Positions 12,091 through 33,894 of a stretch of DNA of 64,000 nt are shown one piece after another. The position numbers and the translations under genes are program-made. The notes under the pieces were generated by a model, which made no database searches, had not been told where the DNA came from, and saw only the letters and a program-made list of their open reading frames with translations. The number at the start of each line of letters is the position of its first letter. Positions within the stretch are counted from its first letter, which is position 1. The DNA is from Minisyncoccota bacterium (GTDB lineage Bacteria > Patescibacteriota > Minisyncoccia > Phycocordibacterales > UBA6065), in contig DASTLR010000003.1 of NCBI GenBank assembly GCA_035714745.1, forward strand, positions 161-64,160. Direction: 5' to 3'.

Positions 12091-12268
12091 CAGCCAAGTG
12101 TACGCCCAGTCGCATCTTGAGTTCTATAGTCCTCTCGTGTCGAAAAAGAGCCTTTCGTCAAAATGGAGTTTCAAATGTCCATTTTAACGAAAGTCGTTTT
12201 TGCGAGACCGTCGAGGGCCCAATAGAATAAAAAGCTTACAAAAAATTCCGCAGATTCCTCGCCGCCTG

Positions 12269-14641: not shown

Positions 14642-15904
14642 ATGCATCAATCGAACAAAGCCTCCGTCGCCGTCATCGCCCTGGCAGCCGTGGCGGTCTC
14701 TTTCGTCCTGGGCTTCCGGTCGGGCGCCACGTCGGCCGCCCAGCAGAGCTTGGCCGCGACCGTCGCCAACCAGGCGGCGGGCAAGCCCTCCTCTGTGGAC
14801 TTCGCGCCTTTTTGGAAGGCCTGGAACATCATCAACGAGAAATACGCGGGCACCAGCACGTCCGACCAGGACAAGGTCTACGGCGCCATCGAGGGCATGA
14901 CCGCCTCGCTCGGCGACCCGTATACCGTATTCTTCCCGCCGGCCGAGTCGAAGATGTTCGCCAGCGAGATCGCCGGCAACTTCGAGGGCGTGGGCATGGA
15001 GATCGGCATCAAGGACGGCCGCCTGGTCGTCGTCTCGCCGATCAAGGGCTCGCCGGCCGAGGCCGCGGGCGTCAAGGCGGGCGACGCCATAGCCAGGATC
15101 GACGAAACGGACGCGGCCGGCCTCTCGACCGACCAGGCCGTACAGCTGATCCGCGGCAAATCAGGGACGAAAGTCCGCCTGGGCCTGGCGCGCGACGGCA
15201 AGCCTTTTTCCGTGACCATCGTCCGGGCAAAGATCGACCTGCCGACCGTCCGCACGGCCGTCAAGCAGGAGGCGAGCTCAGCGGGCTCCACGACCGCCGA
15301 TTCCGGCACCGGCCTGCGCAAGGACGGCATCTTCGTCATATCCCTCTTCAGCTTCAGCGAGAATTCGGCCAACCTCTTCCGCGAGGCTCTGCGCGAGTTC
15401 GTCAAATCGGGCTCCCACAAGCTGGTCATCGACCTGCGCGGCAATCCAGGGGGCTATCTCGAGGCGGCGGTCGACATGGCCTCGTGGTTCCTGCCCGACG
15501 GCGCCATCGTGGTCCATGAATCCTTTGGCAAGGGCGTGCCCGAGCAGGTCTATCGCAGCAAGGGCTATAACATATTCACCGACAAGCTGAAGCTGGTCGT
15601 GCTCGTGGACGGCGGCTCGGCTTCGGCCTCCGAGATCCTGGCCGGAGCCCTCTCCGAGAATGGCCGGGCCATCCTGGTCGGCGCAAAGACCTTTGGCAAG
15701 GGGTCGGTCCAGGAGCTGGTCAACCTGACGCCGGACACCTCGCTCAAGGTCACCATCGCCAAGTGGCTGACGCCAAAGGGCAACTCCATCTCCAAGCAAG
15801 GCATCACCCCCGACTACATGGTGCCGATGACCGAGGCAGACGCCCGGGCGGAGCGCGATCCCCAGATGGACAAGGCCGTGGAATTGCTTTCAAAGCTGCC
15901 ATAG
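14642..15904 (+). CDS. ctpA: Carboxyl-terminal processing protease (peptidase S41) with PDZ domain
   Basis: It has an N-terminal TM/signal region, a PDZ domain (GDAIARIDETDAAGLSTDQAVQLIRGKSGTKV), and an S41 core (LVIDLRGNPGGYL, GGSASASEILAGAL, K in AKTFGKGS). Confidence 0.9.
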   Translation: MHQSNKASVAVIALAAVAVSFVLGFRSGATSAAQQSLAATVANQAAGKPSSVDFAPFWKAWNIINEKYAGTSTSDQDKVYGAIEGMTASLGDPYTVFFPPAESKMFASEIAGNFEGVGMEIGIKDGRLVVVSPIKGSPAEAAGVKAGDAIARIDETDAAGLSTDQAVQLIRGKSGTKVRLGLARDGKPFSVTIVRAKIDLPTVRTAVKQEASSAGSTTADSGTGLRKDGIFVISLFSFSENSANLFREALREFVKSGSHKLVIDLRGNPGGYLEAAVDMASWFLPDGAIVVHESFGKGVPEQVYRSKGYNIFTDKLKLVVLVDGGSASASEILAGALSENGRAILVGAKTFGKGSVQELVNLTPDTSLKVTIAKWLTPKGNSISKQGITPDYMVPMTEADARAERDPQMDKAVELLSKLP

Positions 15905-16912: not shown

Positions 16913-16941
16913 TTGACAAATATAATCAGGGGTGCTATAAT
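16913..16941 (+). promoter_or_regulatory. Consensus sigma70 promoter (TTGACA-N17-TATAAT) driving the transglycosylase gene
   Basis: Exact TTGACA at 16913-16918, a 17-nt spacer, and exact TATAAT at 16936-16941. The ATG follows at 16984. Confidence 0.7.
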
Positions 16942-16983: not shown

Positions 16984-17433
16984 ATGATTTTCGAGCTTAC
17001 GACCGGAATCCTGATGCTCGCATCGGCCCTGACGGGGTCGACGAGCCCTGCGACTGCGGCGACCGCAAGCCAAGGCATATCGAGCGACCAGCCGCTCTCT
17101 ACCGTCTCGACGGAAGCGTACGTCCGCGATTACTTCAAGGACATCCCGCTCCTCGCCGAGATCTCCCGCTGCGAATCGACCTTTAGGCAGTTCGACAAAG
17201 ACGGCAAGCCTATCGTCGGCAAGGTGAACAAGTCCGACATCGGCGTCATGCAGATCAACACCTATTACCATGGCGAGAGCGCGGCCAAGCTGGGCTTCGA
17301 CCTGACCACCATCGACGGCAACCTCGGCTACGCCCGATACCTCTACGGCAAGTACGGCTCGGACCCTTGGTCCAGCTCGTCCAAGTGCTGGGGCACGTAC
17401 GAGAAGCCCGCCAAGGACCTCGCCCGCACGTAA
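16984..17433 (+). CDS. Secreted or membrane-anchored lytic transglycosylase, IagB/IpgF/EtgA-like (GH23 lysozyme-like fold)
   Basis: The N-terminal hydrophobic anchor is MIFELTTGILMLASALTG. The catalytic region CESTFRQFDKDGKPIVGKVNKSDIGVMQIN matches the ES...D.G(L/V)MQIN motif of the IagB family. The track ORF starts at 16867, but the promoter and the hydrophobic N-terminus favour the ATG at 16984. Confidence 0.65.
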   Translation: MIFELTTGILMLASALTGSTSPATAATASQGISSDQPLSTVSTEAYVRDYFKDIPLLAEISRCESTFRQFDKDGKPIVGKVNKSDIGVMQINTYYHGESAAKLGFDLTTIDGNLGYARYLYGKYGSDPWSSSSKCWGTYEKPAKDLART

Positions 17434-17463
17434 TCCGCGCAGAGAAAGAAGGATATAGGCAAA

Positions 17464-19483: not shown

Positions 19484-20749
19484 CTAAAGCGCCGGCAGAT
19501 ACGCCATCGGATCCAGATAGCCCGAGGCCGGCGAGGCCACGGTCTTTATGCCCGCGCAGGCCTTGGAGCCGAGGGCCGACGAGTCGACTATCTGGATGCC
19601 GGCGGTGACGTAGAGGCCGAAATGGAGGTGCGGGCCGGTGGCATAGCCCGTGTCGCCGCTGTAGCCGATCAGGTCGCCAGTCACCACCGCCTCCCCAGGC
19701 TTCGCCCTGACCACGGACATGTGCCCGTAGATGGTCGAGAGGCCGTTCGGATGCTTGATGAGGACGTATTTGCCGTACTGGCAGCCGCTGCGGGCCTTGG
19801 TCGGCTCGGTATCCGTCACTACGCCCGACATGGCCGCGTAGATAGGCGTGCCGATCGGAGCGCGGAAGTCCACGCCATTGTGAGTGCCGGTGGTCTTGTA
19901 GAGCGTGCGCGCGGCCGCCGTCTTGCCGAAGTATTGGGTGATGCCGATGTCCGTCAAAGGCCAGGCCAGGACGCTGTGCTTTGCTCCCGGCACGGCGCTG
20001 GCGCTGACGCTCTTGAGCTTTGCCTCGTATTCGGCCAGCTCCTTCTCGTAGGCCGCGCGCTGGGCGATCTTGTCCGCCAGGAGCTTCTTGTAGGCCGCTT
20101 CCCTGCTGCTCGTCTCGGCCAGGAGCTGGTCCTTCTCCTGCTTGCTCACCGCCACCAGCTTGGTCTGGTCCGCCAGGTTCCTCTTGTAGGACTCGAGCTT
20201 GGCCTTTTCCGCGGCGGCCTTTTCCCTCTTGTCGCTCAGGTCGTCCTGGAGGTCGCGCAGCTCGTCGAAGCGCGTCTTTACCCGGGCCTGGACCGAGCGC
20301 AGGGCGTTCACGTAATCCCACATGTCGGAGAGGCTCCTGTCCTTGAAGAACTCCTCGACCGCCGACTGCGACTCGGCCATGGCCATCTGGCGCATGCCCT
20401 CGGCGATCGCCGCCGACGCTCCGTCCACGCGGGCCTCGGTCTCGCCGATCTGGTCGTCCAGCTGCTCCAGGGTCAGGCCGGTCTTTGATATCTGCTTCGT
20501 CGTCAGGCTCAGGTCGGTCTGCAGCTTCTTTTGCGTCAGGTCGAGGGTCTTGACCGCGTTAGAGAGGGTCTGCGCCTGCTGGGAGGCGGAATTGAGCAGC
20601 GTCGAGTATTGGTCGATGAGCTTCTGGGTCTCGACGATCTTTTGGTTCAGGTCGGACGCGGTGTCGCCAAAAGCCCCGGCGGGCATGAGCGCCAGGGAGA
20701 GCGCGAGAGCCGCACCGGCTATGTATGTCCTATAGTTTGATTGAAGCAA
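19484..20749 (-). CDS. M23 family metallopeptidase with N-terminal signal and long coiled-coil (EnvC/murein hydrolase activator-like)
   Basis: A coiled-coil spans aa ~35-240. The M23 motifs are HNGVDFRAPIGTPIYAAMSGVV and GYSGDTGYATGPHLHFGLY. Confidence 0.9.
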   Translation of the reverse strand: MLQSNYRTYIAGAALALSLALMPAGAFGDTASDLNQKIVETQKLIDQYSTLLNSASQQAQTLSNAVKTLDLTQKKLQTDLSLTTKQISKTGLTLEQLDDQIGETEARVDGASAAIAEGMRQMAMAESQSAVEEFFKDRSLSDMWDYVNALRSVQARVKTRFDELRDLQDDLSDKREKAAAEKAKLESYKRNLADQTKLVAVSKQEKDQLLAETSSREAAYKKLLADKIAQRAAYEKELAEYEAKLKSVSASAVPGAKHSVLAWPLTDIGITQYFGKTAAARTLYKTTGTHNGVDFRAPIGTPIYAAMSGVVTDTEPTKARSGCQYGKYVLIKHPNGLSTIYGHMSVVRAKPGEAVVTGDLIGYSGDTGYATGPHLHFGLYVTAGIQIVDSSALGSKACAGIKTVASPASGYLDPMAYLPAL

Positions 20750-22130
20750 TGGCTTTCTCGATCCTTTTGAGGGTTGTCTCTTTGCCCAGTATGGCGCTCA
20801 GGGTGAACGGGTTAGGCGATCTATCCTTGCCCGAGAGGGCGAAGCGGAACGGCCAGAGCACGTTGCCGCGCCCGTTCTGGTCGGCATAGGGCCAGACGGC
20901 GGCTTTGATCTTGTCCTCCTGCCAATCTGAGGGCGCGATGCCGCGCAGCATCTCCCCTACTTCTTCGAGGTGCTTTTTCGCCGGGCCCAAGTCGGCCTCG
21001 TCCTTCCATTTCAACGACAGGGCGTCGTAGGCGGGCTCCATGAAGTAGTAGTCCAGGTCCTGGGATTCTACGAGCCGCGAGATGTCGCCGTAGGTGTTGA
21101 TGCGCTCGATAAGGACGGGCATGAGCCGGGTCAGCATGTCGTCCGATACGTCCCAGCGCAGGTCAGCGGCGCGCGACATCGAGAGGATGCGCCGGCGGGC
21201 CTCCTTGATGAAATCGGCCTTCGGGGCCTTTTTCAGATGCTCCTTATTGATCCAGCGCAGCTTCTCCTCGTTGAAGATGGCGCCGCCCTTCTGCGCCTTT
21301 GACAGGTCGAAGGCTTTGACCAGGCCGTCCAGGTCAAAGATCTCCTGTTCCGTTCCCGGGTTCCAGCCCAGCAAGGCCATGTAGTTCAGGAGAGCGTCGG
21401 GCAGATAGCCCGCGTCGCGGTAATAGGTCATCGATTGTGCGCCGTGGCGCTTGGACAGCTTTGAGCGGTCGTGGGCCAGGACGAGCGGCAGGTGGGCGTA
21501 GGTCGGCGTCGGGGCGCCCAGGGCCTCCTGGATGAGGATCTGCCGCGGGGTATTCGAGATGTGGTCCTCGCCGCGGATGACATGGGTGATGCCCATCAGG
21601 TAGTCGTCCAGGACGACGGCGAAGTGGAAGATCGGCTCGGTGACGCTTTTGGCGATGACGAAGTCGCCCAGCTCGGCGGTGTCGAACTCGATCTCGCCGC
21701 GGATCATGTCGCGGAACCTCACCCGCTTGTTCGGGTTCTTGAAGCGGATGACCTCTCCCCTCTTGCCCGTTCCCTGGCCGTCCCCTTCCTTGTTCTCTTC
21801 CTTCGATATGAAAGCCTTGCCCTCGTCCAGGAGCCGCTGCAGGTGCTCGCGGTACAGCTCGCCGCGCTCGGACTGGCGGTGCATCTCGTCGTACGGCAGG
21901 CCCAGCCATTCCAGGCTCTCCAGGATGTTGTCTTCGTACTCCTTTTTCGAGCGGGCCGCGTCAGTGTCCTCGATGCGCAGGACGAATTTTCCGCGATTCT
22001 GCTTGGAAAAGAGGTACGAGAAGACCGCCGTGCGGTAGTTGCCGGCGTGGAGGAAGCCCGTCGGAGAGGGCGCGAAGCGGGTCACCACGCGGCCGCGGCC
22101 GCCAAAAAAGGCTTTGATCGCTGATATCAT
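20730..22130 (-). CDS. gltX: Glutamyl-tRNA synthetase
   Basis: The HIGH region is FAPSPTGFLHAGNYRTAVF, followed by LRIEDTD. The KMSKS-type motif is KLSKRHG. The track ORF begins at a TTG at 22157 that abuts a terminator hairpin. The first ATG (MISAIKAFF...) at 22130 is the more likely start. Confidence 0.9.
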   Translation of the reverse strand: MISAIKAFFGGRGRVVTRFAPSPTGFLHAGNYRTAVFSYLFSKQNRGKFVLRIEDTDAARSKKEYEDNILESLEWLGLPYDEMHRQSERGELYREHLQRLLDEGKAFISKEENKEGDGQGTGKRGEVIRFKNPNKRVRFRDMIRGEIEFDTAELGDFVIAKSVTEPIFHFAVVLDDYLMGITHVIRGEDHISNTPRQILIQEALGAPTPTYAHLPLVLAHDRSKLSKRHGAQSMTYYRDAGYLPDALLNYMALLGWNPGTEQEIFDLDGLVKAFDLSKAQKGGAIFNEEKLRWINKEHLKKAPKADFIKEARRRILSMSRAADLRWDVSDDMLTRLMPVLIERINTYGDISRLVESQDLDYYFMEPAYDALSLKWKDEADLGPAKKHLEEVGEMLRGIAPSDWQEDKIKAAVWPYADQNGRGNVLWPFRFALSGKDRSPNPFTLSAILGKETTLKRIEKAIASIKL

Positions 22131-22430: not shown

Positions 22431-23558
22431 CTACTTAGTGTGCTCCAAGGCTATCTTCAGTATTTCCCGGGCGATCTTGTCGGCGGCGTCCTTGTGAGCA
22501 AAGGCCTGGGCGCCCTTCCTCATGGCCGCGGCCACCTCGGGCTTCTCGATGAGGCGATCGATCTCGGCTGCCAGGACATGGGGCGTCAGATTGACCTCCT
22601 CGATGACCGAGCAGCCCCCGGCCGCAGCGTAGGCGTAGGCGTTCGAGGTCTGGTCGTGGCTGATCTCCTCGGGGATCGGAATGACGATTGACGGCACCTG
22701 CCAGAGGGCGATTTCGAAGATCGTCGAGCCGGCTCGGGAGATGATCACCGAGGCCGCGCCCGCCGCCATGCGCAGGGCCAGGACGTTCAGATAGGCGAAC
22801 GGCTTGTATCTGTCGCGGTGGATGCTCTGGTTCAGGATGACCGCCGCGGTGTTGGTCATCTCGTCGATATTGTCCTTGCCGGTCTGATGGATGACGTAGT
22901 ATTTCTTGACCAATTCAGGCAGGATGCCGATGATGGCCTCGTTGATCTTCTTTGAGCCCTGCGAGCCGCCCAGGATGACGACGACGGGGATCTGGTCGTC
23001 GAGCTTCAGGTAATCGCGAGCGCCCTTCTTGATCGGCTCCATGACCTCCTTGCGCACGGGATTGCCGGTAAAGGCCACTTTGCTCGCCGGGAAATAGGCG
23101 CCGGCCTCGCGGTACGAGACGGCCACCCTCTGGGCGAACCTGCCCGCCCAGAGGTTCACGCGGCCCGGATGCGAGTCGGACTCATGGATGACCACCGGGA
23201 TGCCCAGGAGCCGCGCCGCGAACAGGACCGGGAACGAGACGTAGCCGCCCTTGCCGAATACCACGTCGGGATAGATGTTCCAGACATCGATGACCGCGTT
23301 CATGACGCCAAAGGCGGTCTTGAAGAGGTCGGTGACGTTGCGCAGCGAGAAATAGCGGCGCACCTTGCCGGCGTAGGACGGCTTGTAGACGATGCCGTAT
23401 TCAAAGAGCGCGCGCTCGTCGTAGGGCGACGGCGCCATGTAGTAGAGAGCGGCGTCCAGGAGCTTCTCCTCCTTGGCGATCTTCCTGATCGATTCCGCCA
23501 CCGCCACGATCGGATAGAAATGCCCGCCGGTGCCGCCGCCTGTTAGAAGTATCTTCAT
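22431..23558 (-). CDS. murG: UDP-N-acetylglucosamine--N-acetylmuramyl-(pentapeptide)-pyrophosphoryl-undecaprenol GlcNAc transferase
   Basis: The protein begins MKILLTGGGTGGHFYP. A GT28 C-terminal domain is present. Length is 375 aa. Confidence 0.9.
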   Translation of the reverse strand: MKILLTGGGTGGHFYPIVAVAESIRKIAKEEKLLDAALYYMAPSPYDERALFEYGIVYKPSYAGKVRRYFSLRNVTDLFKTAFGVMNAVIDVWNIYPDVVFGKGGYVSFPVLFAARLLGIPVVIHESDSHPGRVNLWAGRFAQRVAVSYREAGAYFPASKVAFTGNPVRKEVMEPIKKGARDYLKLDDQIPVVVILGGSQGSKKINEAIIGILPELVKKYYVIHQTGKDNIDEMTNTAAVILNQSIHRDRYKPFAYLNVLALRMAAGAASVIISRAGSTIFEIALWQVPSIVIPIPEEISHDQTSNAYAYAAAGGCSVIEEVNLTPHVLAAEIDRLIEKPEVAAAMRKGAQAFAHKDAADKIAREILKIALEHTK

Positions 23559-23573: not shown

Positions 23574-24677
23574 CTATTTTCGGAGCCGCGCCGTGCGCGA
23601 TATATTGAGAAGTATACCAGATTCCGCCAGGACGAAGAGCAGGGCCGTGCCCCCCTGCGAGACGTAGAGGAGCGGGATGCCGGAAAGCGGCAGGACGCCC
23701 ACCATGGCCCCGATGTTGGTGAACGACTGGACGATGATGAAGGAGACGATGCCCACCGAGAGCAGGGTGCCGAACTGCGTGTAGGCGGTGACCGCCACTT
23801 TCAGCGAGCGCAGGGCGAAATAGACGAAGAGGCCCAGCAGGGCCAGGGCCCCGATGAAGCCGAACTCCTCTGCCGCCACGGCGAATATCGAGTCGCCGAC
23901 GGGCTCGGGCAGGTACTTGAACTTCTGGATGCTCTGGCCGAATCCCCTGCCCGTCAGCCCGCCCGAGCCGATGGCGATGAGCGACTGCTTGATCTGATAG
24001 CTGGATGCCTGGCTGGCCTCTGACGGGTTCAGGAAGGTCTGGATGCGGGCCATGACGTACGGCCGGGTAAAGGCCAGAAGAGCGAGCCCCAAAAAGCCGA
24101 CCAGGACCAGCGAGCCGATATGCTTCCATCGGCCGCCTGCCGCGATGAACATCGCCGCCAATGCAGCGGCGATGACGATAAATGTGTCGGTGTCAGGCTG
24201 GGCCAGGCAGAGCGCGCCAGTGATGGCGAGCATGACCAGGAGCGGCACGAAGCCCTTTTTGAAGTCGCTGGCCTTGTCCTTGACGAACGATAGCCAGGCG
24301 GCGAAATAGATGATGGCCGCGATCTTCAGCACCTCGGAGGTCTGAAAGGTAAAGGAGCCGATCAAGAGCCAGCGCACCGCTCCGCCATGGTGCAAGCCCA
24401 GGCCAGGGATGAAGATGAGGAGGTTCAGAAAGACAGAGAACACGAAGAATACGAAAGAATACCTGCGCCACTGCAGGTAGTCGATGCGCGAGAAGAGATA
24501 CATGGCCAGGAGGCCGGGCACCAGGCCGAAAAAGATCTGCTTGAAGGCGATCGAGCCGAAATGCACCGAGTCGCGGGCCAAGAGCCCCAGCGAGGCCGAG
24601 AGGAATATGAGAAAGCCCGCCACCACGAGCGAGACGATCGAGACCAAGAGGCGGGTGTCCATCCGTTCCCTGCGCAT
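23574..24677 (-). CDS. ftsW: Peptidoglycan glycosyltransferase, SEDS family (FtsW/RodA)
   Basis: 367 aa, about 10 TM helices, and SEDS conserved segments. It lies immediately upstream of murG on the same strand. Confidence 0.85.
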   Translation of the reverse strand: MRRERMDTRLLVSIVSLVVAGFLIFLSASLGLLARDSVHFGSIAFKQIFFGLVPGLLAMYLFSRIDYLQWRRYSFVFFVFSVFLNLLIFIPGLGLHHGGAVRWLLIGSFTFQTSEVLKIAAIIYFAAWLSFVKDKASDFKKGFVPLLVMLAITGALCLAQPDTDTFIVIAAALAAMFIAAGGRWKHIGSLVLVGFLGLALLAFTRPYVMARIQTFLNPSEASQASSYQIKQSLIAIGSGGLTGRGFGQSIQKFKYLPEPVGDSIFAVAAEEFGFIGALALLGLFVYFALRSLKVAVTAYTQFGTLLSVGIVSFIIVQSFTNIGAMVGVLPLSGIPLLYVSQGGTALLFVLAESGILLNISRTARLRK

Positions 24678-24710
24678 GGGTATAAATATATCATGCCGGG
24701 CAAAGCAAAA

Positions 24711-24737
24711 GGCCGCGACGACGAATCGTGCGGCCTA
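24711..24737. terminator. Stable GC hairpin with U-tracts on both strands, about 35 nt upstream of the ftsW start. A candidate attenuator or terminator.
   Basis: AGGCCGC-(13-nt loop)-GCGGCCT. It is followed by TTTTTT on the plus strand and by UUUGCUUUG on the minus strand. Confidence 0.5.
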
Positions 24738-24950
24738 AGTTTTTTAAGAAGCGAAAGAAGCGCGCTTCGGGGAAAACTGAGAGGGGACGGTGTCCATGCT
24801 CTCCAAAAACCCATCAGGACCTTGTATCTGGCAGGAGGAGACTGGCGTCATATTCGGGACAAACATCGGATCCGCTACGCTTTTGGCGTACAGTCCGGAA
24901 TAGAGCTTCCAATCTGCGACTCGCCGAATCAAAGATCTACTGACATAGAT

Positions 24951-24979
24951 AGTATAGCAGACCCCGTTCCTATTGTCAA
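24951..24979 (-). promoter_or_regulatory. Strong sigma70-type promoter (TTGACA-N17-TATACT) on the minus strand, opening a ~265-nt leader ahead of ftsW-murG
   Basis: The minus strand reads TTGACA ataggaacggggtctgc TATACT. It lies in the dacA-ftsW intergenic region, which contains no credible ORF. Confidence 0.6.
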
Positions 24980-24984
24980 GCACA

Positions 24985-25983
24985 TTAGTACGGCTTAACA
25001 GAGCCGCTATTTTGGGCCAGATAGGCCAGGGTCGACCGGGCCAAGGCTTCCAAATCGGCGAATCTGCCCTCATAGGAAGAGCCTAAAACGGCGATGATCA
25101 AGGGGTGGTCGAGGCCGGCGTTAAAGGCTACGACCACGTTCCCGCCCGACAGGTCGGTGTAGCCGGTCTTTGAGGCGAGGACGTTCGGTATCTCCCCTAT
25201 CGCTTTGTTGGTGTTGCTGGCGGCGTGCACCGCGTTCTTTGACGTCAGGCTGATCTGGCCGTATGAAGTGGCCTCCAGGAGGTGCGGCTTGTGCTTCAAT
25301 ATGAAATCGACGAGCAGTGCCACCTCTCGGGCGCTGCCGTAGCCGCCCGAGACGGTCTGCGAGACGTCCAAGCCCGACTGGTTGTAGAAATAGGCCGTGC
25401 GCAGGCCAATCTCGCGGGCCAGCGAATTCATCTTCTCCACGAAGAGGGCCTGAGGGTCGGTCGAGGTGCTCGAGATGATGGAGCCCCCGGTGGCGGCCAC
25501 CGCCCGGATGCCGTCGTTCGAGGAGGTGATCAGGCTGAAATCGACCAGGTTGCCGATATTCCACTGCTCGCCGATGAGGAGGCCGGTATCCCCTTCCTCG
25601 CGGATGTCGTCGGCGGTCACGCGCACGAGCAGGTAGTCCGGCGCCAGGATCGAGACCGTCAGGGCCGACATCAGCTTGGTCAGCGAGGCCAGCGGGCGGA
25701 CCGCGTCGGCGTCCTTTTCAAACAGGGTCTTGCCCGTCACGGCGTCGTAGACGATGGCCGAGCGAGCCTCGATGGGCGTCAGGGGAAAGGTCGGCAGCTG
25801 GCGGGTGGTCGTGCTGACGGCCACCAGCGGCACGCGGGGCGCCTCGGCCCTGCCGCCCTGGTGAGACCACCACAAAAACAGCGCTATCGCGAGCGCCAGG
25901 AGCGATACTTCGATCTGGGCGATGCGCTTAGGCGACAGGGGGCTGTTCATCGGGTTTCGGTTGCTCGGCGTCTGCCGCGGCAA
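24985..25983 (-). CDS. dacA: D-alanyl-D-alanine carboxypeptidase (serine-type, peptidase S11/PBP5 family)
   Basis: It has a signal/TM N-terminus. The S11 motifs are the SxxK active site in PLASLTKLMSA, SSNDG (SxN), and KTGYT (KTG). Confidence 0.85.
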   Translation of the reverse strand: MPRQTPSNRNPMNSPLSPKRIAQIEVSLLALAIALFLWWSHQGGRAEAPRVPLVAVSTTTRQLPTFPLTPIEARSAIVYDAVTGKTLFEKDADAVRPLASLTKLMSALTVSILAPDYLLVRVTADDIREEGDTGLLIGEQWNIGNLVDFSLITSSNDGIRAVAATGGSIISSTSTDPQALFVEKMNSLAREIGLRTAYFYNQSGLDVSQTVSGGYGSAREVALLVDFILKHKPHLLEATSYGQISLTSKNAVHAASNTNKAIGEIPNVLASKTGYTDLSGGNVVVAFNAGLDHPLIIAVLGSSYEGRFADLEALARSTLAYLAQNSGSVKPY

Positions 25984-26509
25984 AGGCTTCCAGCTCGGCT
26001 TTGACCTTGGCGTAGTCCGGCAGCTCCTCGGCCCGGGTCGCGCCTAGGTGGGCCAAGAGGTCGACGGTCGGGGCGTAGGAGAATCCCCTGCCCTCGCCTT
26101 CGCGGAGGCTCGATCGCTCGACCAGGCCGCGGATCAGCAGGTTGCGCAGGATGAACGACGAATTGACGCCGCGGATATAGTCGATGTCGGCGCGCTTGAT
26201 CGGGCCTTTGTAGAGGATGATGGAGAGGGTCTCGAGGCCGGCCTTGCCCAGGTCGCGGACGAGCTCGTCCTTGGTCAGCTGAGTTATCAGGTCTGAGGCC
26301 TCGGACGCCGTGCGCATCTCGATCTCGGCGTCGGGCCCCTCTCCCAGGCGCATGACGCGCAGGCCGCGGCTCTGGAGGGCGGTTTCGAGAGCCGAAAGGG
26401 CTGCCCGGAGCTCCTCAGCCGTGCAGCCCAGGGCCGCCTGAGCCTTCTTCAGACTGATCGGCTCTCCCTTCCAGAACAGCAGGGCCTCAAGCTTGGTCTC
26501 TAGGGTCAT
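25928..26509 (-). CDS. scpB: Segregation and condensation protein B
   Basis: 193 aa with tandem winged-helix domains (LEALLFWKGEPISL...). The C-terminus is acidic. Confidence 0.8.
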   Translation of the reverse strand: MTLETKLEALLFWKGEPISLKKAQAALGCTAEELRAALSALETALQSRGLRVMRLGEGPDAEIEMRTASEASDLITQLTKDELVRDLGKAGLETLSIILYKGPIKRADIDYIRGVNSSFILRNLLIRGLVERSSLREGEGRGFSYAPTVDLLAHLGATRAEELPDYAKVKAELEAFAAADAEQPKPDEQPPVA

Positions 26510-26522: not shown

Positions 26523-27272
26523 CTAATATTTCGGGACGCCGACAGTCTCGGTCTCCATCTGGATGTCGTCGAAATGGCGCTCCTGACTGACGTTGATGAC
26601 GCCCTGCTTGACCAGCTCGAGCATTGCTAGGAAGGAGACGATGATGTTGACCTTTTCGGCGGGCGCGGCGCTCCCTGCCTGTCCTGCCCCGCCTACGGCG
26701 CCGGCGAACTGGCGGAAGCTCATGCGCAGGTTCTCGGAGACGCGCTGGGTCAGGTTCGTGATCATCTCCTCCAGGCTGATGACCTTGTCGACGACGACCT
26801 TTGGCAGGAACTCGCGCTTGGGCAGGCTGGCCAGGACGCGCCCGGCGGCGGCCAGGAAGTTCTCGGCCGTCATGTCCGCGTCGGGCGAGAATACCGGTTC
26901 CAGGCGGCGCTCGCCGCGGGCAAAGAGGATCCGGGCGCCAAAGAGCGGCTTGATCCTGAGCGACAGCTCGCGCATGCGCTCGTATATGCGCAGCCTGCGA
27001 TTCAGGTCGTCGATCGAGGCCTGCTCCTCGACGGTCAGGTCAAGGGTGGGCAAAAGCGACTTGGATTTGATGAGCAGGAGCGTCGACGCGGTGAGGATGA
27101 ACTGAGCGCTGTCGGCCACGGGAAAATCCGCCAGGTTCTTCACATAGGCGATATAGTCGTCGGCAACTTTGGCGAGCGAGACGTCGCTCACGAAAAGCTT
27201 CCTCTTCTCGATGAGGTCGAGGAGAAGGTCCAGCGGCCCTTCGAAATGCTCCTGTTTGACGGTGAATGCCAT
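26523..27272 (-). CDS. scpA: Segregation and condensation protein A (kleisin)
   Basis: The N-terminal motif is FEGPLDLLLDLIEKRKL. Length is 249 aa. It is adjacent to scpB. Confidence 0.85.
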   Translation of the reverse strand: MAFTVKQEHFEGPLDLLLDLIEKRKLFVSDVSLAKVADDYIAYVKNLADFPVADSAQFILTASTLLLIKSKSLLPTLDLTVEEQASIDDLNRRLRIYERMRELSLRIKPLFGARILFARGERRLEPVFSPDADMTAENFLAAAGRVLASLPKREFLPKVVVDKVISLEEMITNLTQRVSENLRMSFRQFAGAVGGAGQAGSAAPAEKVNIIVSFLAMLELVKQGVINVSQERHFDDIQMETETVGVPKY

Positions 27273-27425: not shown

Positions 27426-28730
27426 TTATGGGACGAGGCGTGTGGGACCGCGATACAGGTAGGTAACCTCACGGACATTCTTGCGATCCAGGAGGATCAT
27501 CAGAAGCCGCGTCAGGCCGAGGCCGAATCCGCCATGCGGAGGGCATCCGTAGCGGAAGAAGTCGATGTAGTGCTTGATCGACTCAAGGGGGATTCCCTTC
27601 TCGGCCGCTTGCGCCGACAGGACGTCGACGCGATGCTCGCGCTGGGCGCCGGTGGTCACTTCCAGGCCGTGCCAGAGGAGATCGAAGCTCTTGGTGAGCG
27701 TTGGGTCATCCTCATGGCGACGGTGATAGAAGGGTCGCACCTCGACTGGATAGTCCGTCACGAACACGAACTCGTGGCCAGTCTTCTCCTTGATGTATTC
27801 GGCGAGCATGCGCTCACCGGGTGGGTCGAGGTCTTCCTTGTGGGCGATCGCGTGGCCGCGCTCGGCCAGGATGGCCCGGGCTTCGGCGAGCGGGATACGC
27901 GGGAACGGCAGCATCGGAACGACGACGTCGATCCCGGTGAGCCGCTTTATCTCGTCTCCGCATTCCTTCTGGACGTAGCCGAGCGCGTAAGCGATCAGGC
28001 GCTCTTCGAGCGCCATCACGTCTTCGTGCGACTCGATCCAGGACATCTCCACGTCGACGGAGGTGAACTCCGTGTCGTGGCGGGCTGTGAACGAAGGATT
28101 AGCGCGGAAGACCGGGCCGATCTCGAAGATACGGTCGAGCCCTGCTGCCATCGCCATCTGCTTGTAGAACTGCGGCGATTGGGCGAGCGTGGCTTTGCCG
28201 CCGAAGTAGTCGAGCTGGAACAGCTCGGCCCCTGATTCGCTTGCCGTGCCCATGAGCTTCGGCGAGTGGATCTCCATGAAGCCGTTCTGCAGCCAGAACT
28301 GCCGCATCCCCTGCTCCAGAGCTGTCTGGACCTTGAAGATGAGGGTGTTCTCGGGACGGCGGATGCTAAGCGCCCGCCAGTCGAGCTGGAGGTCGAGACC
28401 GGATTCGGCTGTGATCGGGAGCAATTGCTCCGCGGGGCCGACATCCTCGATCGAATCGAGCACGATCTCCACGCCCCCGAGCTTAGCGCTCGGATTGGCG
28501 ACGACCTTGCCCGAGGCGATGATGGCGGATTCCTGCGTCAGCGCGCTGATAGCAGCGCCGAGCGGGTCTCCTTCCTTCTTCTCGTGGCAGAGCTGGATCA
28601 TGCCGGTATGGTCCCGGAGGACCACGAACTGCATGCGCTTCTGGTCGCGGATCGCGTGTGCGAAACCCGCAACTGTGACGATCGAGCCCGAGAGCGCTGA
28701 CACATCCCTGGTCAATGTTCGATTAATCAT
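27426..28730 (-). CDS. aspS: Aspartyl-tRNA synthetase, archaeal/short type (possibly non-discriminating)
   Basis: An N-terminal OB fold is followed by a class II core with motifs 1-3 (FRANPSFTARHDTEFT, QSPQFYKQ, FFRYGCPPHGGFGLGLTRL). The probable start is the ATG at 28730 (MINRTL...); the track ORF extends to 28805. Confidence 0.85.
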   Translation of the reverse strand: MINRTLTRDVSALSGSIVTVAGFAHAIRDQKRMQFVVLRDHTGMIQLCHEKKEGDPLGAAISALTQESAIIASGKVVANPSAKLGGVEIVLDSIEDVGPAEQLLPITAESGLDLQLDWRALSIRRPENTLIFKVQTALEQGMRQFWLQNGFMEIHSPKLMGTASESGAELFQLDYFGGKATLAQSPQFYKQMAMAAGLDRIFEIGPVFRANPSFTARHDTEFTSVDVEMSWIESHEDVMALEERLIAYALGYVQKECGDEIKRLTGIDVVVPMLPFPRIPLAEARAILAERGHAIAHKEDLDPPGERMLAEYIKEKTGHEFVFVTDYPVEVRPFYHRRHEDDPTLTKSFDLLWHGLEVTTGAQREHRVDVLSAQAAEKGIPLESIKHYIDFFRYGCPPHGGFGLGLTRLLMILLDRKNVREVTYLYRGPTRLVP

Positions 28731-28749
28731 GATTTGCCTTGCTTTATTT

Positions 28750-30069
28750 TTACGGCGAGATTTTACGCCGGAAAATGCGTGGGAACGGAATGGCGTCGCG
28801 CACATGCGGGATGTTGAGCATCCAGCGGATCATGCGTTCGACCCCCATGCCGAAAGCCGCGTGAGGAACGCAGCCGAGTTGGTGGACGTCACGGACGAAT
28901 TCGAAGCGCGGATCACCATGCTTGCCCTTATCCTTGAGCCGCTCGTCGAGTTCGCGGAGTTGATGGATTTTCTCGGCGGTGCCGAGGAGCTCGCCGTAGC
29001 CATTGCTCGCGATCAGGTCGGCGACGCGAGTGATTCGCGTGTCGGCCGGATCGATGCAATACGGGAACGGTTCGATAGTCCGGGGTATCCCAGTGATCCA
29101 GAACGGGCGACCAGGAAAGAGCTTGGAGAGCAAGGTTTCCTCTTCGGAGCCGAGGCTCTTGCCAAACTCATGTTGCATGCCGAGCGACGAAAGGTGCTTG
29201 ACCGCCTCTTCGTAGCTGATGCGGGGATATGGAACGGACATGCCGTCGGTGCAGAGCGTCGTGCCGAGCACCTGGAGCTCTTCCGAGAGCTCCTTCTGGC
29301 ATTTCTTGGTGAGGAAACAGATGATGTCCTCAACCATCTTGATGATGCAGTCGAGGTCGCACCAAGCCACCTCGGCCTTGATATGCCAGTATTCCATGAG
29401 GTGCCGTTTGCTGCGGCCCTCTTCCCCGCGGAAGCTCGGTCCCATATTGTAGACGCGCTCGAAGGCGTGGACCGCCGCTTCGAGGTAGTATCCGACGCAT
29501 TGCGTCAAGAATACATCCTCGTCATGGACGGTCAGCTTCATGGCCGTGCCGTCTTCGTAGAGCGGCACCGGCGTGAGTATCGGCGCGTCGATCGATGTGA
29601 ACCGGTTGTCTCGGAACCACTGCCGCATGTGATGCATCAGGCTGTCCCGATATTTCAAGATGGCCATTACCTTCGGGTTGCGGAGGTAGATATGGCGGTT
29701 GGCGAGCAGATGGGGCGTCATGCCTTCTGCGAAGATGTCGAAGTCGGAGCGCGGGTGCGGATCGAATCCGCGGGTGACCCCGCCGACGAGCGTGATGTCA
29801 TGCGCGGCGATTTCGAGGCGGCCTTTAGGCGTCCTCGAAACGACTCCTTTGACGACGATGCCTGATTCGACAGGGATATCCCTGGCGATCTCAGACGCTC
29901 CGTTCGAGCCATGCTCGGCGGAGACGACGACTTGGATCTTGCCCGTGCTGTCGGACACATCCAAGAACGTGATGCGGCCCTGGTCCCGCTTGGAGGAGAC
30001 CCAGCCTGACAAGTCGACCTGGTCTCCGGGTTGAGCCCGGAGGAGGTCGGCTACGAATACAGTCTTCAT
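28750..30069 (-). CDS. asnS: Asparaginyl-tRNA synthetase
   Basis: Class II motifs are MGPSFRGEEGRSKRHLMEYWHIKAEVAW and GCVPHAAFGMGVERMIRW. An N-terminal OB fold is present. Length is 439 aa. Confidence 0.8.
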   Translation of the reverse strand: MKTVFVADLLRAQPGDQVDLSGWVSSKRDQGRITFLDVSDSTGKIQVVVSAEHGSNGASEIARDIPVESGIVVKGVVSRTPKGRLEIAAHDITLVGGVTRGFDPHPRSDFDIFAEGMTPHLLANRHIYLRNPKVMAILKYRDSLMHHMRQWFRDNRFTSIDAPILTPVPLYEDGTAMKLTVHDEDVFLTQCVGYYLEAAVHAFERVYNMGPSFRGEEGRSKRHLMEYWHIKAEVAWCDLDCIIKMVEDIICFLTKKCQKELSEELQVLGTTLCTDGMSVPYPRISYEEAVKHLSSLGMQHEFGKSLGSEEETLLSKLFPGRPFWITGIPRTIEPFPYCIDPADTRITRVADLIASNGYGELLGTAEKIHQLRELDERLKDKGKHGDPRFEFVRDVHQLGCVPHAAFGMGVERMIRWMLNIPHVRDAIPFPRIFRRKISP

Positions 30070-30176
30070 AGTCTGACCCTTCCTTGGTTGGTTATTGTAT
30101 CGGTTTCGAGGAACTTCGGTCTGTGCCGGAGTCTTGTTTCACATTAATGAAAAAAGCAAACTGTGTCAATACCTAC

Positions 30177-31236
30177 TTAGAATTCGATGGATATGGTTCG
30201 GGCGGCCGGGTCGATTCGCACCTTTCTACCATACGGTATGGGTATCTGAGGATGTGTGTGCCCAAAATCAAGATTTTGTATTACTGGCGCCTTTGGATTG
30301 TATCGACGGAATTCTGCGAGCACATGTTCCCGCTGTTCGCGCCTGTAAGCAGCTTTAGCAGATGACCCTTTCGGGTCCGAAAAGTTCCACGCTTTTGGAC
30401 GGCCCACAAGGAGGCCTTTGGCAGCTCCTAAGATTTTCTTTCTTCCGAGCTTCCTTAGTATCGAAGCGACTTTTCGAGCAGATGGCACTTCTTCTGAGGT
30501 CTCAATGAGCAGAACCGCGTCCTTGAATTGATCAAGTGTCGGCATATCATTTCCCGAATCAAGCATTGCATTGATTGACTCAAGACAACCACCCCATGTT
30601 ATTCCCTCCACTATCAAGTCTCCGTCCCAGAACCAACCCTCATTTGGTTCGAAACATCGCTCCTGCTTAAGCGACTCTGGATTACTCCAGTCGACGTCGA
30701 CATCAGAGTATACGCTACTCGACATGAGGTCCACCCGGCCCTTCCTGAAGAGCGCCTGATTGATAAAACGATCTGTGAACTTATCAGGTCCTTCCTTGTG
30801 GGCGAATTGGGTGAAGAGTGCCGCGCCGTAATACGAAGGCACGCCAAGGAGCCAGAGGAAACTCATGAAATGGGTATTGTCGCTGAAGCCAAAAAAAGGC
30901 TTAGGGTTTAATGCGAACGGTTTCCGAGGCAAGAGCTTCATATATGTTGCCTGATCATCGCCACCAAGAGTGGTCACTACCCCTTTGATTTCCGAGTCAG
31001 AGAAGGCTGCAACTAGATCATTGATACGCTCGTCGACTGACGCGCCGAGTTTTCCTGTTGAGGGATATTCTACGGGGATAAGCCCGAGCTTACGGATTTG
31101 CTTCAAGCCAAGCTCATATACATGAGGCCACTTCCCCGGCGCGGCAAATGAAGGTGATAATATTGCCACCTTGTCACCTCTTTGGAGTTTTCGGAGTCTC
31201 TTGAATCTCACAAGATAATCATACGATATAAACATA
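30177..31236 (-). CDS. LD-carboxypeptidase, peptidase family S66 (LdcA/MccF family), in a low-GC island
   Basis: GDKVAILSPSF marks the family's N-terminal conserved segment, and the nucleophile Ser is in GFSDNTHF. The ATG at 31236 (MFISYDYLV...) sits just after a perfect terminator. The longer track ORF to 31490 reads through that terminator. Confidence 0.8.
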
Positions 31237-31258
31237 AAAAGGGCGCCGTAAGGCGCCC
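31236..31258 (-). terminator. Rho-independent terminator after the amidohydrolase gene
   Basis: On the minus strand the sequence is GGGCGCC-UUAC-GGCGCCC followed by UUUUUAUGUUU. Confidence 0.75.
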
Positions 31259-31263
31259 ATCTC

Positions 31264-32298
31264 TCAAAACCCAAAAAAAGCTTCGGCGTTCTTGCGAAAG
31301 ATCCGTTGCTTTGCCTGGTCTCGCATCTCGAGAGGCAAACTCTCGATAGCATTCCGAAGAGCGGTAAGGCAGAGCCAATGGCTATGCTCAGCCCCTTTAG
31401 CCAAGTGTCCATAGACCTTGTGCTCTTCCGGATCGGTCCAATGATACTGATACGATGTGACGATCCGCTGGCCCTTTTCCGGGTGAACATAGGGCCGCGA
31501 CCTGATTAGGTTAAGAGGTTCGTCGCTCCCATACATGATACGGCTGATACCGAAAGATTCGATAGCGAGCTTCATAACCTCTTCCGACGGGTTAAGCGAT
31601 GTATCCATGCTCACGTTCGGAGCTTCAGCGATTCGGCGATAGGCTTCGGCTAAGCCAGATACAACGAATTTCGTCGAACCGAGGTGGGCGATTGATATTC
31701 GTAAGGCTGGGAAATCCGTAACGACCTTCATCAGATCATCCTGGCTTTCCACAATCATCCGGGGTAGATGAAGGATAATCGGGATACCAAATCGCTCAGC
31801 CGCCACAAGGATCTCTGGAGGAAAACATTGATAGATCTCTTTGGCTGTTGGCTCGACATACGAATAATACATTTTGAGTGCCGAAACACGTGGGTGGAGC
31901 AACATCCGAATCGTATACTCGGGATCCTCTGGCAGGCCAAATAAGGCGACCCGATCATTTGGCGGGCTATCAGAGAGCAGATACTGGTTCACTTTGCGAT
32001 GGTCTATGCCCCGGAAAGTTTTAGCGAATCGGAGCGACCTGATCGATTTACCAGGGTGAAAAACCTCTCTTACCTTTTCCGACTCCTCGATCGAAAAGCA
32101 AGGGAAAGTCGAGAGCATATGACGAAAGGTCTTTTCGCCCATATCTCGGATATGCTCAGGAAGTGTTGCATGGGCATGACAATCGACGATATCGCTTGGC
32201 AGCCAACGAGTGAATGACTCGATGGATGTTTTCTCTCGGTCAGAGAGCGCCATGGCATGCGCGAGATACGCATCTCTGTTTATAGTTGTTGCGAGCAT
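31264..32298 (-). CDS. Metal-dependent amidohydrolase (amidohydrolase-2/TIM-barrel hydrolase family)
   Basis: 344 aa. The N-terminal metal-binding motif is IVDCHAH, and later segments are ISIAHLG and MYGSDEP. GC is ~45%. Confidence 0.6.
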   Translation of the reverse strand: MLATTINRDAYLAHAMALSDREKTSIESFTRWLPSDIVDCHAHATLPEHIRDMGEKTFRHMLSTFPCFSIEESEKVREVFHPGKSIRSLRFAKTFRGIDHRKVNQYLLSDSPPNDRVALFGLPEDPEYTIRMLLHPRVSALKMYYSYVEPTAKEIYQCFPPEILVAAERFGIPIILHLPRMIVESQDDLMKVVTDFPALRISIAHLGSTKFVVSGLAEAYRRIAEAPNVSMDTSLNPSEEVMKLAIESFGISRIMYGSDEPLNLIRSRPYVHPEKGQRIVTSYQYHWTDPEEHKVYGHLAKGAEHSHWLCLTALRNAIESLPLEMRDQAKQRIFRKNAEAFFGF

Positions 32299-32370
32299 GT
32301 GTTGTCTATTTGAGTGTTCATCTCTTAATAGAGCCTACATGCCGCAGATCGAGCAGTCAACCTGTGTACT

Positions 32371-33768
32371 CTACGGCGTCAAACGCTTAACACCTCGATA
32401 AAGATACGTCACATCTCTCACGTTCGAGATGCCGAACACTTTCATTAGCATGCGTGTTGGGCCCGGAGCGAATCCTCCATGTGGGGGACAGCCGTACCTG
32501 AAGAAATCGATATAGGTCTTGAATGAAGCGAGGTTGAGACCTTGCTCCTCGATCTGTTTCGATAATCTCTCAACACGATGCTCCCTTTGGGCTCCGCTCG
32601 TTATCTCGACCCCATTCCATAGGAGGTCAAAGCTTTTGGTGATTGTCGGGTCCTTTTCATCTCGCATGCTGTAGAATGCTCTTACTTCAGTCGGGAAATC
32701 ATGGATAAATACGAATTCATGGCCGAATTTCTCTTTGACATACTCGCATATAGCCCGCTCTTCTTCTGGGCTCATGTCGCCGCCACGCTCATTCGGAATG
32801 CCTCTAGCGGCAAGTATTTTTTTTACTTCACGGATCGATATTCTTGGGAACGGAAGAGCGGGCACAGGCAAATCTCTGCCGTATATCTTAAGAATTTCGT
32901 CGCCGTGCTTTTTTTTGACGGCGGCTATCATCGCCGTCACCATTTTTTCTTCTTGATCCATTAGGTCATGATGTGACGATATATATGACATTTCGATATC
33001 ATACATAGTGAACTCGGTGTCATGTCGGGAAGTGAAAGAAGGATTCGCTCTGAATACAGGACCTACTTCGAAGACACGCTCGAATCCCGCCGCCATCGCC
33101 ATTTGCTTGTACAGCTGAGGAGATTGGGCGAGCTTGGCCGTCTCGTCGAAATATTTCACTTCGAACAGCTCGGCGCCTGACTCTGACGCAGTTGATATGA
33201 GCTTTGGCGAATGAATCTCTATGAAATCGTTTTCGATACAGTACGTTCTAAAGGCCTGCTCCATTGTCGTCCAGACCTTGAATATAAGAGCATTCTCAGG
33301 TTTACGGAGATCGATCCACCTCCAGTCAAGACGTATCTGCTGATCAGTTTCTTCGTTTCCCTTCTTTACGACTACGGGTATAGGCAGCTCTGGATCTGCG
33401 ACAGAGAGTATTTCGAGCCGCGTTATCTCTATCTCTACCCCTCCAGGGGCTTGATCGGCTTTTTTTGCCTTACCTGCGAGTGCGATGACGGATTCGAGCG
33501 AAAGCGTCTTTAATTTTTCGAACTCGGGATTGTCTTTAGTGGCGAGCGCTTGAACCGTGCCTGTTATATCGCGAAGCACTACGAAGATAATCTTGCTCTG
33601 TACTCGCAGGGCATGCACGAATCCCCTAACGACTATTTCTTCTCCCACATGGGCTGCGACTTCCTTGGCGTGGATCATATAATGATATTTGTATCGGAGA
33701 AATAAAAGACCCTCCGAACTCATAGGCTTGTAATGAATTCGCAGGGGCGATTTAGATCGCGGTGCCAC
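32371..33768 (-). CDS. Second aspartyl-tRNA synthetase paralog (archaeal type) encoded in low-GC DNA
   Basis: About 70% aa identity to the 27426..28730 protein across the core (for example HSPKLISTASESGAELFEVKYFDETAKLAQSPQLYKQMAMAAGFERVFEVGPVFRANPSFTSRHDTEFT). All three class II motifs are intact. GC is ~46% versus ~60% for the native copy. The start is uncertain (M1 at 33768, M16, or M31 at 33678). Confidence 0.85.
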   Translation of the reverse strand: MAPRSKSPLRIHYKPMSSEGLLFLRYKYHYMIHAKEVAAHVGEEIVVRGFVHALRVQSKIIFVVLRDITGTVQALATKDNPEFEKLKTLSLESVIALAGKAKKADQAPGGVEIEITRLEILSVADPELPIPVVVKKGNEETDQQIRLDWRWIDLRKPENALIFKVWTTMEQAFRTYCIENDFIEIHSPKLISTASESGAELFEVKYFDETAKLAQSPQLYKQMAMAAGFERVFEVGPVFRANPSFTSRHDTEFTMYDIEMSYISSHHDLMDQEEKMVTAMIAAVKKKHGDEILKIYGRDLPVPALPFPRISIREVKKILAARGIPNERGGDMSPEEERAICEYVKEKFGHEFVFIHDFPTEVRAFYSMRDEKDPTITKSFDLLWNGVEITSGAQREHRVERLSKQIEEQGLNLASFKTYIDFFRYGCPPHGGFAPGPTRMLMKVFGISNVRDVTYLYRGVKRLTP

Positions 33769-33894
33769 CCTGTCTTATAACTCTGTGCCGCGTGCGTGCG
33801 GCGCCCGGAGGCCATCCTCTTCCTCGCCGGTCGTTACTCGGGTCGTCGGAGTCGTATATATGCTATAGCTTTTGGGCGGCTTTTGCAACCGCTC

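Follow-up and report, generated by a model that had tools for sequence, protein, structure and literature searches.

A candidate structured non-coding RNA gene next to ftsW in a Paceibacterota subclade

Several orphan structured non-coding RNAs of bacteria, among them the raiA-motif, OLE, ROOL and 6S/Ms1-type RNAs, are transcribed from their own promoter and end at an intrinsic terminator. In the Candidate Phyla Radiation (CPR/Patescibacteria), which makes up a large share of bacterial diversity and has genomes of ~1 Mb with little intergenic space, almost nothing is known to us about non-coding RNAs. Here, we describe a locus in a 64,000-nt stretch of a Minisyncoccota bacterium genome (contig DASTLR010000003.1 of assembly GCA_035714745.1, positions 161 to 64,160; hereafter the window). 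Positions 24701-24979 of its minus strand probably hold a self-contained gene for a structured non-coding RNA of ~244 nt that is not a leader of the neighbouring gene, ftsW. The RNA is a candidate new family of a Paceibacterota subclade within the CPR/Patescibacteria. Like the orphan RNAs, it appears as an independent unit of a few hundred nt with several helices and a pseudoknot, in which structure is kept over sequence and which belongs to one lineage. Unlike them, it matches none of the 4227 models of Rfam 15, even at E<=10 in a local search, and has so far been found only in the Paceibacterota subclade, always beside ftsW. It also lacks the single long rod and central bubble of 6S RNA; its 5' end is paired within the molecule, in a helix we call P1, and its 3' domain is separate.

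The other described systems that come close are riboswitch and attenuator leaders, which share with this locus a promoter, a pseudoknotted RNA and an intrinsic terminator, co-oriented upstream of a biosynthetic operon. The locus differs from them in lacking an evident antiterminator, in having a separate conserved promoter past the terminator, in being dispensable in close relatives, in matching no Rfam class and in the very variable length and body of its RNA. The SAM-II and preQ1-II/III aptamers, H-type pseudoknots with major-groove triples, also place a U- or A-rich strand along a helix just upstream of an expression signal. In contrast to these aptamers, the element here lies within a much larger RNA, has no Rfam match and no ligand-related gene context, and its terminator does not compete with the pseudoknot. 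The preQ1 riboswitches are treated as a family in a review (PMC11625349).

A promoter-to-terminator cassette upstream of ftsW

The initial annotation of this DNA had placed a minus-strand promoter, TTGACA-N17-TATACT, at 24951-24979. Re-reading of the window confirmed it: the site, TTGACA-17-TGcTATACT, has 11 of 12 consensus matches, carries in addition the TG of an extended -10, and scores highest across 20-30 kb. Its -35 hexamer TTGACA lies at 24974-24979 (-) and its extended -10, TGCTATACT, at 24951-24959 (-), with TATACT at 24956-24951 and TG at 24959-24958. In the strict form TTGAC-N14-16-T[GA]nTAnAnT, such a promoter occurs only three times on both strands of the 64-kb window. Transcription from this near-consensus, sigma-70-type promoter would start at ~24944, the seventh nt after the -10, and would end at ~24701-24705 at an intrinsic terminator. 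The predicted non-coding RNA thus spans 24701-24944 (-), with its 3' end placed at the end of the U-tract. An ORF-less transcript of about 265 nt had been proposed; the lack of a conserved open reading frame (ORF) held among all 19 RNAs described below, and the length was corrected to 244 nt.

The intrinsic terminator (24701-24736, -) consists of a hairpin of 11 bp with a single bulge and a UUCG loop, AGGCCGCACGA-UUCG-UCGUcGCGGCCU at 24736-24710, followed by the U-tract UUUGCUUUG at 24709-24701, and has a folding energy of -17.2 kcal/mol. This is the GC-rich hairpin and U-tract that had been noticed shortly before ftsW; the hairpin ends 32 nt and the U-tract 23 nt before the ftsW ATG at 24677. 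A terminator scan missed the hairpin because its outer 7-bp stem encloses 13 nt. A hairpin with a U-tract is found in 19/19 RNAs, with hairpin energies of -14 to -30 kcal/mol, and all seven outer pairs covary across lineages on a hand-fitted alignment of 12 RNAs. Adding the 5' arm of the terminator to the upstream RNA gained no more energy than adding shuffled arms in the 19 RNAs (-5.9 kcal/mol compared to -4.8±1.6 kcal/mol for shuffled arms in the window). The 5' arms pair upstream no better than shuffled ones, so no antiterminator is evident; the terminators are strong, and that of the RNA gene looks constitutive from its sequence.

Related loci, labelled here with L-numbers, were sampled as ftsW neighbourhoods only. 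Comparison by eye of the spacers between dac, the gene upstream, and ftsW revealed the same cassette, co-oriented with ftsW and immediately 5' of it, in 19 distinct lineages (the window, L106, L121, L003, L045/L065, L062, L063, L009, L066, L071, L068, L008, L002, L109/110, L111/112, L115, L116, L117 and L118), whose FtsW proteins are 65-85% identical to that of the window. Each cassette is made up of CTTGACA-17-TGCTATAMT, a start near AG that lies 7 nt past the -10, the RNA body, a GC-rich terminator with its U-tract, and a second extended -10 before the ftsW ATG. The sequence (C/A)TTGAC is invariant in 19/19 cassettes and TGnTAnAnT follows at the same 17-nt spacing in nearly all, L115 having a shifted -10 variant, TCTGATACAAT. 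The RNA is 244-412 nt long across the relatives, and the distance from the terminator to the ftsW -10 is 9-40 nt. Synonymous sites are saturated among these 19 lineages, so recurrence of the arrangement is beyond chance. Conservation and covariation in relatives, which the initial annotation had put forward as a check, were both found, and the missing conservation that it had named as speaking against its reading was not what the relatives showed. In L121, a gene for a Ham1-like nucleoside triphosphate (NTP) pyrophosphatase (136-741) with its own terminator (760-785) lies between dac and the cassette, and the cassette still adjoins ftsW, which argues that the RNA does not depend on transcription from dac.

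The presence of the cassette is patchy. It is missing, and the dac-ftsW spacer is only 13-42 nt, in L105, L001, L107, L004-L007, L064 and L102. These relatives can be as close to the window as those with the cassette: FtsW identity to the window is 85%, 83% and 82% for the cassette-less L105, L001 and L107 compared to 84% and 83% for the cassette-bearing L106 and L045.

Homology of the cassettes is apparent only when the spacers are read side by side. BLASTN (word size 7) of the 307-nt window spacer against 61 related loci gave no significant match. A covariance model, R1, built from an excerpted hand alignment recovered only the compact RNAs it was trained on, at 19-36 bits, and missed RNAs with long inserts and a divergent group that we call 'type 2'. 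The 64-kb window gave one copy only, and ~650 kb of related loci gave none at other places; the weak matches of R1 in L069, L085 and L020 were ordinary terminators. Two pattern scans of IMG/VR were also discarded: the promoter followed by AGTAG returned two unrelated contigs, and a U-motif pattern returned at least 120 chance matches, none of which R1 confirmed.

The Rfam/Infernal comparison that the initial annotation had suggested for the leader matched no riboswitch or other family. The search with all 4227 models found nothing in the local 1.1 kb at E<=10 and no family in ten homologous loci at E<=5; at the gathering score, the whole window yielded only a tRNA. The models for 6S, RNase P RNA, SRP RNA and tmRNA gave no match in the region (E<=10) or in the ten homologous loci (E<=5), and ARAGORN found no tRNA or tmRNA in the spacer. 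Weak matches to RcsR1, mmgR, NsiR1 and ctRNA covered the terminator hairpin only and were chance-like, and likenesses seen by eye to RNase P, SRP, 6S, tmRNA, T-box and preQ1 RNAs had no Rfam support. A literature search on non-coding RNAs and leaderless translation in the CPR found no description of this element.

Promoters of the same strict type were also surveyed outside the cassette. The full promoter occurs 32 times in the ~714 kb examined; ~24 of these belong to the cassette, and the others lie before tRNA genes (L061, L114) or, in the window, before two leadered protein genes. The first of the two window sites, at 16913-16941 (+), TTGACA-N17-TGCTATAAT, precedes an ORF at 16985-17434 (+) of ~150 aa with an N-terminal hydrophobic segment; unlike the leaderless majority of genes described below, this ORF has a leader, ~40 nt long and with a small hairpin, CAGAGAUUUUCUCUG. 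The second, at 50922-50893 (-), is followed by a ~90-nt leader with two hairpins, GGUAUGCACCGUGCAUACUGG and GGGUGGUUUCUGCACCACC, and then by a 160-aa ORF (50314-50796, -). This leader has no Rfam match at the gathering score and could be a small cis-regulatory leader. L114, an IMG/VR 'viral' contig that may come from a CPR genome or from a phage of the CPR, carries at 11771-12150 (+) the same promoter type, AGUAGAG... and a ~370-nt ORF-poor stretch with ACGGGUUUAG; a similar promoter at ~11411 (-) precedes a tRNA gene on this contig, and R1 gives no match to L114. Downstream of further full-consensus promoters, at ~654 (-) in L007 and ~885 (-) in L076, the sequence is rich in GC and poor in ORFs (an example is AGUAUUACUCUGCCUUCGGGCUCCGAGAAACCCCCGC), and these stretches may be other stable RNA genes.

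Fold, covariation and a possible triple helix

All positions in this section are on the minus strand of the window. The minimum free energy (MFE) fold of the window RNA, with a z-score of -1.9 against shuffles, contains helix P1, hairpin A, helices P3 and P4, and the terminator. The 5' strand of P1, GUCAGUAGAUCUU at 24932-24944, pairs in this fold with 24823-24813, and no other segment of the RNA is a better partner for the 5' end; the 3' strand, AAGGUCCUGAU at 24813-24823, ends directly at a GGG motif. An equivalent helix of unrelated sequence is present in 12/16 RNAs, where it is usually also the best partner of the 5' end, and it follows one plan: the first 10-20 nt of the RNA are paired to a segment whose end lies 0-1 nt ahead of GGG. 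The 5' end would thus pair ~120 nt downstream and close a variable 5' domain, with P1 abutting the GGG core.

The core runs from 24812 to 24770 in the order GGG, U-rich strand, hairpin A, (A)G with a second U-rich strand, and CC(U/C). GGG and U-rich motif 1, GGGUUUUUG, lie at 24804-24812 and take the form (G/A/U)GG-UUU... in the 12 RNAs that we call 'type 1'. Hairpin A (24779-24803; GAGAG...CUCUC with an inner GGAC/GUCC) is part of the MFE fold and shows double changes at 5/5 outer pairs (hand-fitted). U-rich motif 2, AGUUUU, followed by a CCC that is a possible partner of GGG, lies at 24770-24778 and forms the 5' strand of P3, both in the MFE fold and in an RNAalifold structure of L009, L066 and L071. 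Hairpin B, or P4 (24748-24768; GAAGCG...CGCUUC), is again part of the MFE fold, with double changes at 4/4 outer pairs (hand-fitted). It is followed at 24738-24745 by the A-rich tract AAAAAACU, whose AAAACU pairs in the MFE fold with AGUUUU as the 3' strand of P3; CCAAAA or AAAAC is conserved before the terminator. P3 has undergone a compensatory change: where the window and L009 have AGUUUU:AAAACU, L066 and L071 have AGUUCU:AGAACU. In this arrangement the A-rich tract before the terminator would fold back on the second U-rich strand, and since P3 and GGG:CCY cross, the two together would make a pseudoknot.

When L009, L066 and L071 were aligned with MAFFT without manual fitting, RNAalifold gave 91 pairs, 12 of them with compensatory changes and P3 among them. 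MAFFT alignments of the full spacers and of the 3' core (auto, L-INS-i and E-INS-i) misaligned the helices, and RNAalifold then recovered the terminator only. For this reason an excerpted, N-padded alignment of 12 RNAs, A2, was fitted by hand to the proposed helices. On A2, 96% of cells pair and 19/25 pairs have double changes, far above shuffled and slid controls, although these counts are biased upward because the helices were chosen sequence by sequence. What can fairly be said is that the hairpins differ from lineage to lineage and occupy one and the same position between conserved motifs. Conservation of the motifs themselves is modest: GGGTT is found in 14/18 RNAs and GGGTTT in 10/18, compared to maxima of 13 and 8 in shuffled controls. 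The seven 'type 2' RNAs (L002, L109, L116, L117, L118, L111 and L115) are divergent in the body. Pairing of GGGUUNN with NNAACCYG encloses, in some of them, a central domain that is much larger, and L002, L109 and L117 could pair an internal GAGGUU with an AACCUC that precedes the terminator, giving the same crossing topology. Between L066 and L071 the RNA is 94% identical, in contrast to 72% identity at four-fold sites of ftsW; the RNA thus changes far more slowly than four-fold sites over its whole length, which suggests purifying selection on the RNA.

A 23-nt direct repeat of 74% identity links the loop of hairpin A (24782-24804) with the start of ftsW (24647-24669, which holds the second ATG and encodes Met-Asp-Thr); ATGGACACC is exact in both copies. 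Mimicry of, or pairing with, the 5' region of ftsW by the RNA was considered and dropped: the other lineages scored no higher than cross-lineage controls, and duplex energies of long sequences were uninformative. The repeat is absent from other lineages and is probably due to chance.

The 3' domain can be compared to the nuclear expression element (ENE) and MALAT1. In the MALAT1/ENE triplex, the 3' U-rich strand pairs with the A-tract by Watson-Crick and the 5' U-rich strand by Hoogsteen contacts, its own helices P1 and P2 abut the triplex, and there is one C+•G-C triple (PMC6379651). The bacterial RNA has the same parts in the same order, namely a basal helix, a 5' U-rich strand, an apical hairpin, a 3' U-rich strand, a linker and an A-tract. 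We tentatively propose, as an idea with rather less than an even chance of being right, that its 3' domain is an ENE-like clamp in which the U-rich strands around hairpin A, closed by GGG:CCY, grip the encoded A-tract as a short U•A-U major-groove triplex. The layout GGG-U3-5-hairpin A-(A)G-U3-5-CCY is found in 11-12 'type 1' RNAs. The basal helix GGG:CCY is paired in 94% of cases on A2 and is nearly invariant, so its covariation is uninformative. Watson-Crick pairing of the A-tract with the 3' U-rich strand (P3) is possible in 90% of its cells on A2 and includes the U-A to C-G change in L066 and L071; P3 is only 4 bp in L003, L045, L062 and L063. With motif 1 laid parallel to the A-tract, three layers read U/A/U in 9-12 of the 12 RNAs on the hand-made alignment. 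Layer -3 reads C/G/C in L066 and L071 (one evolutionary event), where the G of the A-tract meets C in both U-rich strands as in a C+•G-C triple, and the adjacent layer -2 reads C/G/C in L068, whose UCUCC can instead form a local hairpin with GGAGA. The triplex score exceeded shuffles and all slid registers, on the hand-made alignment and with one clear and one ambiguous substitution event behind it.

The RNA differs from the ENE/MALAT1 elements in several respects. It is bacterial, and its A-tract is not 3'-terminal but internal, 0-5 nt upstream of the terminator hairpin and ~35-45 nt short of the predicted 3' end. There are 3-5 possible triples here compared to ~9-10 in MALAT1, and the basal helix has no more than 3 bp. 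The U/A/U pattern is missing from L008 and from the seven 'type 2' RNAs. Speculatively, an ENE-like clamp, with C+•G-C in some lineages, would lock the 3' domain and stabilise the RNA.

A separate ftsW promoter and the competing explanations

Between the terminator and the ftsW ATG, outside the RNA, lies an extended -10, TGATATATT at 24685-24693 (-), 7 nt before the ATG. TGnTAnnnT is found 6-9 nt before the ftsW ATG in every close relative, whether the cassette is present or absent. The same signature recurs through the genome: 19/55 long ORFs of the window have a TANNNT that ends at a distance of exactly 6 or 7 nt from the ATG, compared to ~1 at any other offset. Many of these 19 starts also have TG, and none has a Shine-Dalgarno sequence. 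Examples of such starts are the genes at 9582-10217, 10237-11619, 13695-14609, 14642-15904, 20730-22130, 25928-26509, 35644-36618 and 39233-39730. Most window genes thus appear leaderless by their start regions, and a literature search found no paper describing leaderless expression in CPR bacteria. The conserved extended -10 between terminator and ATG, together with the genome-wide leaderless signature, suggests that the ftsW mRNA is most likely leaderless or nearly so, with a promoter that lies past the terminator and a 5' end at or close to the ATG (24677). With ftsW separately transcribed from its own promoter, the RNA would be a neighbour of ftsW, not its leader.

The initial annotation had favoured a riboswitch or attenuator placing ftsW-murG under conditional read-through control. 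In its present form this explanation holds that a cis leader senses a ligand, protein or condition and gates read-through into ftsW-murG, the proximal promoter giving only a basal level. We consider it unlikely, but it is the strongest of the alternatives. The cassette lies immediately 5' of ftsW in the same orientation in 19/19 lineages, even in L121; a conserved, structured pseudoknot domain abuts the terminator, as an aptamer does in a riboswitch; and a second in-frame ATG, 15 nt into ftsW and preceded by purine-rich sequence, could serve read-through transcripts. However, no antiterminator was found beside hairpins of this strength, a conserved leaderless-type promoter lies between terminator and ATG, close relatives keep ftsW with the same proximal promoter and no cassette, and no Rfam riboswitch matched. 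The constant adjacency to ftsW is also weakened as an argument, since sampling was restricted to ftsW neighbourhoods and is subject to ascertainment bias. Moreover, we know of no metabolite riboswitch like an 'aptamer' of 244-412 nt with a highly variable body. Together, these points speak against a riboswitch or attenuator, and the conserved ftsW -10 downstream of the terminator argues against conditional read-through. The initial annotation had named transcription of ftsW only from a promoter inside the leader as evidence against its reading; the extended -10 at 24693-24685 comes close to this at the level of sequence.

A more improbable explanation is that the cassette acts at the level of DNA or transcription and its RNA is unimportant, the promoter and terminator insulating ftsW from transcription upstream, for instance, or delivering terminated RNA polymerase to the ftsW promoter nearby. 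Promoter and terminator are by far the best conserved parts while much of the body is variable, and the terminator is only 9-40 nt upstream of the ftsW -10, as this would predict. Against it, compensatory changes have preserved P1, hairpin A, P3 and P4, there is conservation of the core motifs GGGUUU, CCUGG and AAAAC, the RNA of L066 and L071 changes along its whole length at a far lower pace than four-fold sites, and a plain insulator needs no 244-412 nt.

Mechanical ORFs overlap the RNA in the window (32 aa; 109 aa, begun inside dac; and 129 aa, crossing the terminator and entering ftsW in a different frame), and most cassette copies have ORFs of 30-78 codons, several of which cross the terminator. 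In an all-vs-all BLASTP of ORFs of at least 15 codons, none was conserved among the 19 RNAs in position, frame or peptide; apart from one chance match of 13 residues, only ORFs of the near-identical L066 and L071 matched each other, and the ORFs differ even between these two RNAs. Neither a small-protein gene, which these ORFs might suggest, nor a mobile-element remnant or insertion, which the patchy presence among close relatives might suggest, is at all probable, given the lack of a conserved ORF, of terminal inverted repeats or target-site duplications in 24640-25020, of further copies in the window and of a transposase or reverse transcriptase gene beside the cassette.

An independent small RNA gene, which had been offered as the second option at the outset, is thus the better supported, with its own promoter, its own terminator, no conserved ORF and compensatory changes in its helices. 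Several points count against it. All instances lie 5' of ftsW in the same orientation, which fits a cis role too. The two other full-consensus promoters of the window drive leadered protein genes, so the promoter type alone is no mark of an RNA gene. The transcript ends, the abundance of the RNA and the efficiency of its terminator are predictions. The upward bias of the A2 counts weighs here as well, and the 'type 2' RNAs are not confidently alignable to the core. Outside the promoter, core motifs and terminator the body evolves fast; L062 and L063 have FtsW proteins that are 95% identical and RNAs that are only ~52-65% identical.

If the locus is an independent RNA gene, its product would most likely be an abundant, stable RNA that acts in trans, or the RNA of an RNA-protein particle. 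The compact 3' domain would protect it from 3'-to-5' decay.

Genomic setting and significance

The minus-strand gene order around the cassette, by Pfam, is scpA (26523-27272), scpB (25928-26509), dac (24985-25983), the 307-nt spacer, ftsW, murG and gltX. By its FtsW relatives, the window belongs to Paceibacterota/Parcubacteria, within the CPR/Patescibacteria, and an identical locus is deposited as ENA ERZ28572737 (BAND20-1_SAMN13481442 scaffold_82, 85.9 kb). The product of dac is an S11 D-Ala-D-Ala carboxypeptidase. Pfam confirmed the downstream genes as ftsW (SEDS family; 23574-24677, -) and murG (22431-23558, -), as first annotated. The ENA gene call chose the alternative in-frame ftsW ATG 15 nt downstream of 24677.

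Nearby, two slightly overlapping ORFs at 27426-28805 and 28750-30069 (-) encode class II aminoacyl-tRNA synthetases of the Asp/Asn/Lys type, each with an OB anticodon-binding domain and a tRNA-synt_2 domain (Pfam). The G+C content is 0.42-0.50 at 30001-34000 and 44001-56000 compared to ~0.60 in the remaining window, and these stretches may be foreign or recent acquisitions. ARAGORN called a 95-nt 'tRNA-???' with a two-base anticodon at 31191-31285 (-). The call overlaps the predicted ORFs 30177-31490 and 31264-32298, is absent from the Rfam tRNA results at the gathering score and is probably a false positive.

For annotation, the analysis corrects a tempting riboswitch label on ftsW-murG, and a leaderless majority in the genome alters the reading of any promoter-like site that adjoins a start codon. 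At its size, the RNA lends itself to in vitro probing and structure determination, for which the organism need not be cultured. If the ENE-like clamp were true, an RNA-stability device of eukaryotic and viral long non-coding RNAs (MALAT1/PAN type) would extend to bacteria, in a CPR lineage. Since intergenic space is scarce in genomes of ~1 Mb, the spending of 250-400 nt and one of the strongest promoters of the region on a structured RNA suggests that this RNA is important to the cell.

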